A stretch of DNA of 36,717 nt from Escherichia phage Mu: sequence record NC_000929.1; one strand, written 5' to 3'. This document shows, piece after piece, positions 7,485-10,385 of this stretch (position 1 is the first letter of the stretch; each line of letters begins with the position of its first letter). The notes beneath the pieces were generated by a model, which was not told the origin of the DNA, searched no databases, and was given only the letters and a program-made list of their open reading frames with translations. The translations under genes and the position numbers were made by a program.

Positions 7485-7653
7485 AACATCGTATTCGTGG
7501 CTGGGGAAATTCACCACGGTGAAACAGGAATGCCCGACCTGCGGTAATGAATCCCCTGAATATCTGAAAGAGTGCCCTCATTGTGGCGGGCTGAAATGCA
7601 ACCACTGCGATATGGGCGATGACACAGCGTGCATGAATTGTGAAGGTGAATAA
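7471..7653 (+). CDS. Early small Cys-rich protein (60 aa, putative zinc ribbon)
   Basis: GGAGGT RBS; product has CPTCG ... CPHCG ... C-x2-C ... C-x2-C, i.e. four CxxC pairs. Confidence 0.65.
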   Translation: MENNKTSYSWLGKFTTVKQECPTCGNESPEYLKECPHCGGLKCNHCDMGDDTACMNCEGE

Positions 7654-7654
7654 T

Positions 7655-7957
7655 ATGAATAATGAAACTAAATTTACTCCCCTTAATATTGATAACGTCA
7701 TGGCTGAAAAAGGGATGCTGGAACGTGTTCGCGCTATCGTTGAATATGGTATTAAGCATAATCTCACCGCCAGAGAAGTCCGTGACATTATCAACCGCGA
7801 AATGAATCGTCTGGAAACAGTAGTGGCACTGCAAAATGAAACAGCCCGCGAGGAGTACATCCGCCGCAGGCTGGGGCTATCAGACCAGGATATTGTTACT
7901 GACGCTCATGTGTTTGAGGCTTTTGAGATCCGTCAGCATCTGGGTCTAACGAACTGA
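7655..7957 (+). CDS. Early hypothetical protein (100 aa)
   Basis: ATG at 7655 immediately after the previous stop (TAA 7651-7653) with a GAAGGTGAA RBS; the ORF-track start at 7640 is a GTG. Confidence 0.6.
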   Translation: MNNETKFTPLNIDNVMAEKGMLERVRAIVEYGIKHNLTAREVRDIINREMNRLETVVALQNETAREEYIRRRLGLSDQDIVTDAHVFEAFEIRQHLGLTN

Positions 7958-8162
7958 TAATGTCTTCCATGATCTTTGACAGTTGCAGTTTTTCGCGGCG
8001 GCTTGTTCTCATTGCAGGCGCATCTTTTAAAATCTCTGCTGAAGAGCTGAAAATGGCTTTGCCCTCTTCTGCGGTGATGATCGCCTTCTTCACCAGAAGG
8101 CGCACCAGTGCTGATGCAATCGCATAACCTGCAACATCATAAGGTTGTACATTATTTTCCAT
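7896..8162 (-). CDS. Candidate antisense small ORF (88 aa), status uncertain
   Basis: Minus-strand ATG at 8162 is preceded on that strand by AGAGG with ~5-nt spacing. About 68 codons lie in the otherwise ORF-free 275-bp gap between the last early ORF and gemA; the 3' end overlaps the plus-strand gene. I do not recall an annotated gene here. Confidence 0.25.
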   Translation of the reverse strand: MENNVQPYDVAGYAIASALVRLLVKKAIITAEEGKAIFSSSAEILKDAPAMRTSRREKLQLSKIMEDIISSLDPDADGSQKPQTHERQ

Positions 8163-8232
8163 AAAATCCTCTCTGATTGATGTGTAAATTCAGGCGGTGT
8201 TGCAGCACCGCCCCCTTTCCGGAGGTACGATC

Positions 8233-8784
8233 ATGAGTCGCACATCCCTGATTAAATTAATCCATGTCGCCCGTCGGGAGCTACAACTCGACGACGACAC
8301 TTACCGCGCTTTTCTGATGCAGAAAACGGGCAAAATCAGTTGCCGCGAGCTGACGGTCACGCAACTGGAACAGGTGCTCGGTGCCATGAAAGAACGCGGC
8401 TTTAAGAAGCAGAATAAATACCCCCGTCGCCGCTTTAAGGGGCATGTCACGCCCCGTGAGAAGGTGTATAAAATCTGGCAGCAGATGGCAGAAGACGGTT
8501 TTATTACCGATGGCGGTGATGTGGCGCTGGATAAATATGTTCAGCGCCTGACCGCGAAACGCAACGGCGGACAGGGCGTTTCCACACTGGCGTGGTGTCA
8601 TGGCGACACGCTGCTGACAGTCCTCGAAACACTCAAGCAGTGGCACATCCGCTGTATTCGTGAAGCCTTTTCCCGTCACGGGCTTCCATTGCCGGTCAGT
8701 CCGTCCGGTCGTGAACTGCGCGGCTATGATGCCATGACGGCGGCTTATGCCCATGCCAGAAAGACACGGAGGATGGCACAATGA
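8233..8784 (+). CDS. gemA: GemA, early host-modulating protein (183 aa)
   Basis: ATG at 8233 preceded by GGAGG; product MSRTSLIKLIHVARRELQLDDDTYRAFLMQKTG...; position just upstream of mor as in Mu. The ORF-track start at 8197 is a GTG inside a hairpin. Confidence 0.8.
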   Translation: MSRTSLIKLIHVARRELQLDDDTYRAFLMQKTGKISCRELTVTQLEQVLGAMKERGFKKQNKYPRRRFKGHVTPREKVYKIWQQMAEDGFITDGGDVALDKYVQRLTAKRNGGQGVSTLAWCHGDTLLTVLETLKQWHIRCIREAFSRHGLPLPVSPSGRELRGYDAMTAAYAHARKTRRMAQ

Positions 8785-9170
8785 CGGAAGATTTATTTGG
8801 TGATTTGCAGGATGACACCATCCTGGCACATCTTGACAATCCCGCCGAGGATACGTCACGCTTTCCGGCACTGCTGGCGGAGCTGAACGATTTACTGCGC
8901 GGGGAATTGTCCCGGCTGGGTGTTGATCCTGCCCATTCACTGGAGATTGTTGTGGCTATCTGTAAGCATCTGGGCGGCGGTCAGGTCTACATTCCACGCG
9001 GTCAGGCTCTGGACTCGCTGATTCGGGATTTGCGTATCTGGAATGATTTTAACGGTCGCAACGTCAGCGAACTGACCACCCGTTATGGTGTCACTTTCAA
9101 TACGGTGTACAAAGCCATTCGCCGGATGCGACGGCTGAAATACCGCCAGTACCAGCCCTCACTTCTGTAA
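8781..9170 (+). CDS. mor: Mor, activator of the middle promoter (129 aa)
   Basis: 129-aa ORF overlapping the gemA stop; clear paralog of C at 9963 (shared ...GG-Q-YIP-G ... FNGRN--EL ... Y ... IY-I). Confidence 0.9.
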   Translation: MTEDLFGDLQDDTILAHLDNPAEDTSRFPALLAELNDLLRGELSRLGVDPAHSLEIVVAICKHLGGGQVYIPRGQALDSLIRDLRIWNDFNGRNVSELTTRYGVTFNTVYKAIRRMRRLKYRQYQPSLL

Positions 9171-9176
9171 ACAGTA

Positions 9177-9200
9177 AAGCCGGTTAATCCGGCTTTTTTT
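9177..9200 (+). terminator. Rho-independent terminator ending the early operon
   Basis: Stem AAGCCGG / CCGGCTT with loop TTAAT, followed by a run of seven T, 7 nt after the mor stop codon. Confidence 0.8.
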
Positions 9201-9962: not shown

Positions 9963-10385
9963 ATGCAGCATGATTTATTTGAACACGATCCGGCAATTCG
10001 CCAGTTAATCGGACATATTGATAACATCCCGGCCCCGGAACTGGAATCACGCTGGCCCCGTTCGGTGGTTGATCTGATTGATGTTCTGGAAAACGAACTG
10101 AAACGCCAGAACGTCAGCAATCCCCGTGAACTTGCCCGTAAACAGGCCGTTGCCCTGTCCTGTTTTCTGGGTGGACGGCAGTTTTACATCCCCTGCGGCG
10201 ATACGATCCTGACCGCGTTACGCGACGATTTGCTTTACTGCCAGTTTAATGGTCGTAACATGGAAGAACTGCGTCGCCAGTACCGCCTGTCCCAGCCGCA
10301 GATCTACCAGATTATTGCCCGCCAGAGAAAGCTGCATACACGACGTCATCAGCCTGATCTGTTCTCACCTGAAACCCCAAAATAA
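9963..10385 (+). CDS. C: C, late transcription activator (140 aa)
   Basis: 140-aa ORF with GGGGGAAAA upstream; paralog of Mor; position before the lysis and morphogenesis genes. Confidence 0.9.
   Translation: MQHDLFEHDPAIRQLIGHIDNIPAPELESRWPRSVVDLIDVLENELKRQNVSNPRELARKQAVALSCFLGGRQFYIPCGDTILTALRDDLLYCQFNGRNMEELRRQYRLSQPQIYQIIARQRKLHTRRHQPDLFSPETPK

Follow-up and report, generated by a model that had tools for sequence, protein, structure and literature searches.

A stem-loop maintained upstream of gemA in bacteriophage Mu and its relatives borders a variable slot of leftward accessory genes

Stem-loops which stabilize mRNA are known from the 5′ end of E. coli ompA, from the REP sequence of malEFG and from the intercistronic hairpins of the Rhodobacter puf operon. 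Hairpins or standby sites upstream of a Shine-Dalgarno sequence (SD), which insulate the ribosome-binding site (RBS), are a concept taken from translation-initiation studies and synthetic biology. As for accessory genes, the classic morons of the lambdoid phages HK97 and HK022 bring their own promoter and terminator. Slots for such genes with conserved sequences at their junctions belong to mosaic temperate phages more generally, and Pseudomonas Mu-like phages have accessory regions, too (PMC4378225).

The hairpin described here lies directly upstream of gemA (gene 16) in Escherichia phage Mu (sequence record NC_000929.1; the whole stretch of 36,717 nucleotides is referred to as the window). 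Like the mRNA stabilizers, it is a stable stem-loop in an untranslated stretch of a polycistronic mRNA, directly before an RBS, without a U-tract and free in orientation and loop; unlike those of the REP type, it is present in a single copy. As in stabilizers, pairing rather than sequence appears to matter, judging from covariation at four of eight pairs, the free loop and the existence of inverted versions. The likeness to weak intrinsic terminators is less close. With intrinsic terminators, such as the one at 9176-9196, it shares a G+C-rich stem of similar size (7-8 bp, six G·C pairs) and a pyrimidine-rich tail, which reaches T5-T6 in the relatives L045 and PhiR68_1. However, Mu has no U-rich tract behind the stem but the tail CCCTTTCC, and the site is located within the early unit, upstream of the essential gene mor. 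RBS-insulating hairpins are matched in that the stem ends 8 nt before the SD, SD and AUG are unpaired and the RBS is buffered in silico, whereas the effect in Mu is a predicted one, small and not uniform. The surroundings of the hairpin resemble moron or accessory slots, as a fixed site carries differing, oppositely oriented small genes with a sharp break of homology. In contrast to classic morons, no promoter is detectable in the Mu slot, and the leftward genes have the hairpin on their 5′ side.

The locus follows the semi-essential early genes and precedes gemA, mor and then C (9963..10385); the features are listed in Table 1. Positions 7600-8800 of the window are 99.8% identical to M64097 (“Bacteriophage Mu left end”) and 93-98% identical to SfMu, D108 and several Mu-like phages of Yersinia and E. 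coli. An inverted repeat had been reported at 8194-8213 in the initial annotation. The repeat is present, but its coordinates were one base off: the arms occupy 8193-8199 (GGCGGTG) and 8206-8212 (CACCGCC), enclosing the loop TTGCAG at 8200-8205. The reported distance of about 20 nt between a 7-bp stem and the gemA ATG agrees with a stem end at 8212 and an ATG at 8233. Folded as RNA of the + strand, seven Watson-Crick pairs and a U8200·G8205 wobble add up to eight pairs closed by a UGCA tetraloop (−13.8 kcal/mol, z = −3.9), and none of 200 shuffled sequences folded as well. The RNA of the − strand forms seven pairs (−12.4 kcal/mol, z = −3.2), and folding as DNA gave −8.6 and −7.7 kcal/mol for the two strands. 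Just before the hairpin, M64097 has a G at position 8192 where the window has an A; this G would add a ninth pair, G8192-C8213, and represents either a sequencing difference or a strain polymorphism. No feature is annotated at the position of the hairpin in M64097, D108, SfMu or the PGAP prophage records. A scan of the region against Rfam 15 with E-values up to 10 returned noise only and no family match; the sole overlapping hit, to the symR terminator, reflects a generic stem (14.2 bits compared to a gathering score of 61, E = 9.5).

Table 1. Features at the gemA junction of phage Mu (positions in the window).
Feature	Position	Strand	Basis or remark
Leftward accessory gene, 88 aa, phrog_8747	7896..8162	−	Own SD; ATG 30 nt left of the hairpin
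223-nt segment	7958..8180	.	In Mu and SfMu; absent in vB_YpM_3, L035 and L091
Stem-loop GGCGGTG / TTGCAG / CACCGCC	8193..8212	+	Sequence, folds, conservation and covariation in relatives
GTG in the 5′ arm	8197..8199	+	Where the mechanical ORF begins (E16 in M64097); gemA itself starts at the ATG
Mechanical ORF, 195 aa	8197..8784	+	ORF list
Pyrimidine-rich linker CCCTTTCC, hairpin to SD	8213..8220	+	Sequence; length and T content (T3 to T6) vary in relatives
gemA SD GGAGG (8221-8225) and ATG (8233-8235)	8221..8235	+	GGAGGTACGA conserved at about 50% GemA identity
gemA, 183 aa	8233..8784	+	Rightward early transcript
mor	8781..9170	+	Rightward early transcript, follows gemA

The hairpin indeed includes the GTG which the ORF track had used as a start codon, as this triplet is part of the 5′ arm. 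Going by sequence and comparison of records, however, the true start of gemA is the ATG at 8233, and the curated records of D108, SfMu and the E. coli prophages (PGAP) begin gemA at this ATG. Even close relatives differ in the length of the C/T tract that separates the hairpin from the SD (7-9 nt), so that the frame of the GTG is not conserved. A short upstream ORF running through the hairpin to the ATGA of gemA, in the frame of D108 and SfMu, was rejected because it has no SD and its frame is unconserved. Within the linker, the bases CCUU can pair with GAGG of the SD (8214-8225, + strand), giving a weak helix of 4 bp that stacks on the main stem. The counterpart of this sequence in the L111 type folds into a mini-hairpin with a C(UUCG)G tetraloop, which takes in part of the SD.

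Perfect 7-bp stems with a loop of 3-8 nt were found at 35 positions in the window, compared to 15.3 ± 5.1 in dinucleotide shuffles; for such stems with at least five G·C pairs, the numbers are 15 and 4.7 ± 2.5. Since about 15 stems of 7 bp are thus expected by chance per genome, a single stem is not significant alone, and consequently any case for more than chance rests on the comparative data. The motif matches only once in the window when up to two mismatches are allowed, ruling out a repeated palindrome of the REP/BIME type. Outside of gemA loci, the exact 20-mer was detected in two phage contexts in IMG/VR, namely between two co-directional ORFs of a GC-rich prophage (L167, L177, L184 and L189; approx. 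3790-3809 of L167) and between terL and a GIY-YIG endonuclease gene (L176, 1039-1058). In both, it is located 27-37 nt upstream of the next gene and has the same orientation as that gene. A control scan using the same stem with a free loop recovered more than 95 unrelated contexts among the matches listed. Therefore, the non-gemA 20-mers were treated as near chance; the numbers suggest an occurrence close to chance, albeit with a mild excess.

For comparison, about 150 gemA loci were assembled from annotated phages, IMG/VR (63 loci), metagenomes (80 loci) and E. coli genomes, of which 95 of 5,426 carry the region; a scan of genome contigs with a single GemA protein yielded just nine loci, mostly distant. 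In most Mu-type relatives, gemA is more than 93% identical and, therefore, identity of the hairpin is uninformative there. The 20-mer is also identical, including its loop, before gemA in L111, L114, L117, L129, L130, L169, L172, L182 and L186, where GemA is 46-51% identical to that of Mu and the first 150 nt of gemA are approximately 55% identical. All 20 positions match in places where the adjoining sequence is about 55-80% identical, although the L111 type also shows good conservation over the first 60 nt of gemA. Other relatives have altered the element while keeping the pairing. The L041 type has the loop TTGCCG. In PhiR68_1 and L082, the hairpin reads AGCGGTG-TG(A/G)TAG-CACCGCT (loop TGATAG in PhiR68_1), so that the outer G-C pair is now A-T. 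L084 has two adjacent double changes (GGCGGCT-CACTTA-AGCCGCC), and L123 one compensated and one uncompensated change. An unrelated hairpin occupies the same 20-nt frame in L092, GGCTGCGC-TAAT-GCGCGGCC (as RNA GGCUGCGC-UAAU-GCGCGGCC). The loops of L052 (approx. 1161-1180) and L100 (approx. 660-680), CTGCAA and CAGCAA, are inverted with respect to TTGCAG, a pattern typical of a palindrome whose loop has been inverted. Neither the sequence of the loop nor its orientation is consequently critical.

Nine distinct variants share one 20-nt frame, in which 94.4% of the cells are paired and four of the eight pairs have changed on both sides; the covariation score of 0.385 (shuffles: 0.225 ± 0.047) was reached by one of 500 shuffles, in a set and alignment frame that had been picked because the hairpin is visible there and is subject to this ascertainment. 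Sliding the register reduces pairing to 28-69%. The distance from hairpin to ATG is steady at 16-22 nt. Based on these patterns of substitution and pairing, the hairpin is real, maintained in evolution as a structure, and linked to the gemA side of the junction. It is tied to gemA rather than to the leftward gene because it persists in three types of junction which have no leftward gene: vB_YpM_3/L035/L091, L053/L079 and PhiR68_1/L082/L087/L093. In the last of these the loop is polymorphic with the stem intact. The hairpin is missing where an upstream ORF on the + strand overlaps the gemA start (classes C and D, L060 and most distant relatives), and L149, with a gap of 42 nt before gemA, has a GC hairpin of its own. 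Class B junctions combine a leftward gene with a long untranslated stretch, yet have only a weak A/T-rich repeat and no GC hairpin; the element is, therefore, dispensable. The 50 nt before gemA fold with −14 to −21 kcal/mol where the hairpin is present and with −3 to −10 kcal/mol in other junctions. Among the distant relatives of GemA (35-44% identity; L137-L163 and L008-L014), most have the stop codon of the upstream rightward ORF overlapping the gemA ATG as ATGA.

Since Mor is produced from the rightward early transcript (PMC2582627), the + strand is transcribed at this position, and we infer that RNA of the + strand is the active form of the hairpin. The wobble pairs themselves give mixed evidence on the strand: Mu (at the inner pair), L092 and the L111 type (three extra pairs) have U·G pairs which only the + strand can form and which favor it, whereas the inner wobble of L052, L100 and L084 favors the − strand. 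Over the nine variants, approximately 68 of 72 cells pair on the + strand compared to approximately 65 of 72 on the − strand.

To the left of the hairpin, the 88-aa ORF is a real gene by the evidence of sequence and annotation; it is annotated by RefSeq in SfMu and by PGAP in E. coli prophages, and L041 has a homologue of the same length and 52% identity in the same place. D108 and Mu_3F6 carry a leftward gene of 119 aa in the slot (phrog_38610), further diverged members linked through phrog_32893 are found in L016, L052, L084 and L114, and a different leftward family (phrog_585, DUF2513-like) is present in L100, L111 and the class B junctions. The slot, which is situated inside the rightward early operon, thus accommodates two or more unrelated groups of genes (phrog_8747/38610/32893 and phrog_585), and occupants were seen in the window as well as in L002/L004, L016, L041, L052, L084, L100, L111, L114, L117 and L022. 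For the leftward proteins, searches gave no Pfam match above cut-off, no PADLOC match and no PDB relative, with PHROG families of unknown function as the only matches. At least eight unrelated left flanks meet the hairpin exactly at its first G, while hairpin, SD and the 5′ end of gemA are conserved, and each leftward ORF has its SD and ATG 25-40 nt from the hairpin. Judged by these alignments, a slot whose leftward accessory genes are hypervariable ends at the hairpin as its fixed boundary, a context which the initial annotation missed. We consider it unlikely that as the right-hand border of this previously undescribed slot the hairpin serves as a structural insulator or a recombination anchor, permitting leftward cassettes to be swapped without disturbing the expression of gemA and Mor.

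The 223-nt segment which distinguishes Mu and SfMu from vB_YpM_3, L035 and L091 is bordered by the direct repeat TGAT (7955-7958 and 8178-8181), with the hairpin outside. In the three relatives the hairpin is kept despite the absence of the segment, and the order is the stop codon of the preceding rightward gene, 12 nt, the hairpin, 19-20 nt and the gemA ATG. This arrangement suggests that the leftward gene was gained or lost by microhomology-mediated recombination at TGAT. The corresponding position in L005 is 1100-1120. The indel does not reach the final 62 nt of the leftward ORF, which run antisense to the 3′ end of the gene before it.

The initial annotation had proposed an RNA structure affecting gemA translation, and stem-disrupting and compensatory mutations as a way to check it. 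The energy needed to open the RBS (−15 to +13) was computed for ten natural variants with a wild-type, disrupted, compensatory or deleted hairpin. The mean was 9.25 kcal/mol for the wild type and 9.23 kcal/mol for compensatory double mutants, compared to 10.25 kcal/mol after disruption of the 5′ arm, 10.59 kcal/mol after disruption of the 3′ arm and 10.68 kcal/mol upon deletion. The predicted insulation thus is a small effect of approximately 1-1.4 kcal/mol on average, and a few variants (L084, L111) show the opposite. In this in silico version of the mutagenesis, disruption makes the RBS slightly less accessible and compensation restores it. Since disruption lowers accessibility, any effect on translation would be insulation, not repression. 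An operator hairpin which occludes the RBS was rejected, as the SD (8221-8225) and the ATG lie outside the stem and disruption raises the opening energy. Of the proposed structure, the part that stood is a leader structure kept by compensatory changes and replacement hairpins; SD and ATG, in contrast, are not contained in it.

The reading we favor, tentatively and with less than even confidence, is a cis-acting RNA stem-loop in the part of the early mRNA that leads into the gemA-mor translational unit, which acts largely independently of its sequence as an insulator, a stabilizer, or both. In most of the distant Mu-like phages, gemA is translationally coupled to the preceding gene via the ATGA stop/start overlap; this coupling seems to be ancestral and is interrupted by the leftward-gene slot in Mu and its enterobacterial relatives. 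As the slot breaks the coupling, the early mRNA (from Pe) carries, ahead of gemA, an A/U-rich antisense stretch of 270-420 nt that is not translated. At the end of this stretch, 8 nt before the SD of the first uncoupled RBS, the hairpin would lock its G- and C-rich arms together, which prevents them from pairing with the initiation region, and set the RBS region apart from the variable sequence upstream, so that accessibility of the RBS might be held roughly constant across differing upstream sequences. Alternatively or additionally, it could form a 5′ (or 3′) barrier guarding the distal gemA-mor or the proximal segment after endonucleolytic cleavage in the untranslated stretch, a role to which its position is equally suited. 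The hairpin may plausibly contribute to how the early mRNA is processed or how stable it is.

The sequence behind the stem raises the question of termination. The initial annotation had noted that a T-tract is missing and a terminator is unlikely, and for Mu both remarks apply: the tail CCCTTTCC has 3 T in 8, C residues follow the stem, mor is read through downstream, and a terminator scan flags the canonical early terminator after mor (9176-9196), not the hairpin. For some relatives, the remark does not hold, since their T5-T6 tails look terminator-like. The tail of L045, TCTTTTTCGG, passes a simple terminator pattern, and in PhiR68_1 and L082 CACCGC is followed by TTTTTAAA, downstream of genes on the + strand. 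Partial termination in some relatives is, therefore, possible from the look of these tails. As a general explanation, a leaky intrinsic terminator or attenuator on the + strand would stop part of the early transcripts before gemA-mor, thereby tuning Mor or ending the preceding cassette. The G+C-rich stem of 7-8 bp and −13.8 kcal/mol and a T run within 0-3 nt in every variant are consistent with it. However, the proximal C residues in Mu, the need to express mor from the early transcript (PMC2582627), the canonical early terminator further downstream and the free variation from T3 to T6 in very close relatives, which suggests that there is no selection for or against termination, make this explanation improbable. 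Far less probable still is a DNA operator, i.e., an inverted repeat bound by a dimeric regulator of the divergent genes, be it another phage-encoded protein or the leftward product. Consistent with such an operator, the inverted repeat is perfect over 7 bp, lies between divergent genes next to a small one, and has a sequence identical down to the loop in distant phages. On the other hand, the half-sites change with pairing kept in L084, L092 and PhiR68_1, which is the signature of a folded strand; compensation of this kind argues against a protein operator. The spacer is free, too, the leftward proteins match no DNA-binding domain, and in Mu no sigma-70 promoter was found on either strand, be it across the hairpin or beside it.

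Whether the element serves the leftward gene instead, either in a leftward transcript, as a stem-loop of its 5′ leader or a promoter-proximal element, or at the DNA level, as a conserved junction which anchors the exchange of leftward cassettes by recombination, is a matter on which the junctions themselves bear. That at least eight unrelated flanks abut its first G, with SD and ATG of each ORF at a similar distance and several leftward families involved (phrog_8747, 38610, 32893 and 585-like), speaks for this explanation, as do the nearly equal fold of the minus strand, the inverted versions in L052 and L100 and the placement of the two non-gemA 20-mers upstream of a gene in the gene's own orientation. 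However, three junction types have retained the hairpin although they carry no leftward gene, class B has a leftward gene but lacks the hairpin, and the two non-gemA copies are near chance by the control scan. No conserved leftward sigma-70-like promoter was found within 260 nt to the right of the hairpin in 12 variants and, consequently, the leftward transcript cannot be placed. Further, purifying selection on a hairpin beside a fast-evolving gene would produce a sharp break in homology as well. That the hairpin serves the leftward gene is thus doubtful, at a probability as low as that of the leaky terminator. The hairpin might also have no function at all, being a chance G+C-rich palindrome or the remnant of a cassette terminator which hitch-hikes with the 5′ end of gemA and is spread by recombination. 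The number of 7-bp stems expected by chance, the high identity of gemA in most relatives including its first 60 nt in the L111 type, and the junction classes which manage without a hairpin are in line with this. Double changes at four of eight pairs, different hairpins held in the same frame and a 20/20 match amid less conserved neighboring sequence, with a free loop and a kept stem, argue against it, and we regard absence of function as unlikely, if somewhat less so than a terminator or a leftward role.

If the hairpin stabilizes or insulates gemA-mor, a post-transcriptional layer would be added to the early-to-middle switch of Mu, since the time at which Pm is activated depends on the dosage of Mor. 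The presence of a leftward accessory gene inside the early operon, with this switch left intact, would be explained as well. Taken alone, the hairpin belongs to an ordinary class of elements; what the finding chiefly provides is a correction of where gemA starts and of how the region is to be read. Of more interest is the hypervariable slot beside it, which emerged as a by-product: the hairpin is an easy landmark for this slot in Mu-like prophages, and genes of unknown function, possibly involved in host interaction or anti-defense, could be harvested by means of it.

Two further sites were observed in the vicinity, besides the TTGCA of the loop, for which a sigma-54 reading (−24/−12) was rejected by eye since it does not fit on either strand. 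A promoter-like site, TTCTCA-16-TAAAAT (9/12), is located approximately 200 nt upstream of gemA (8006-8033, + strand), within the sequence antisense to the leftward gene. According to the statement in PMC3820752 which cites Paolozzi & Ghelardini 1992, the gem operon is constitutive in lysogens, and the site is a candidate source of such repressor-independent expression; if it is used, the hairpin would be situated in the 5′ leader of that transcript, too. On the minus strand, a terminator-like site is found within gemA at 8344..8329, where GGCAACTGATTTTGCC is followed by CGTTTTCTGC, and the same site was flagged in PhiR68_1 (L006, 1622..1607, minus strand). If functional, it would halt leftward antisense transcription approximately 110 nt before the hairpin and, therefore, confine any promoter of the leftward gene to 8163-8329.
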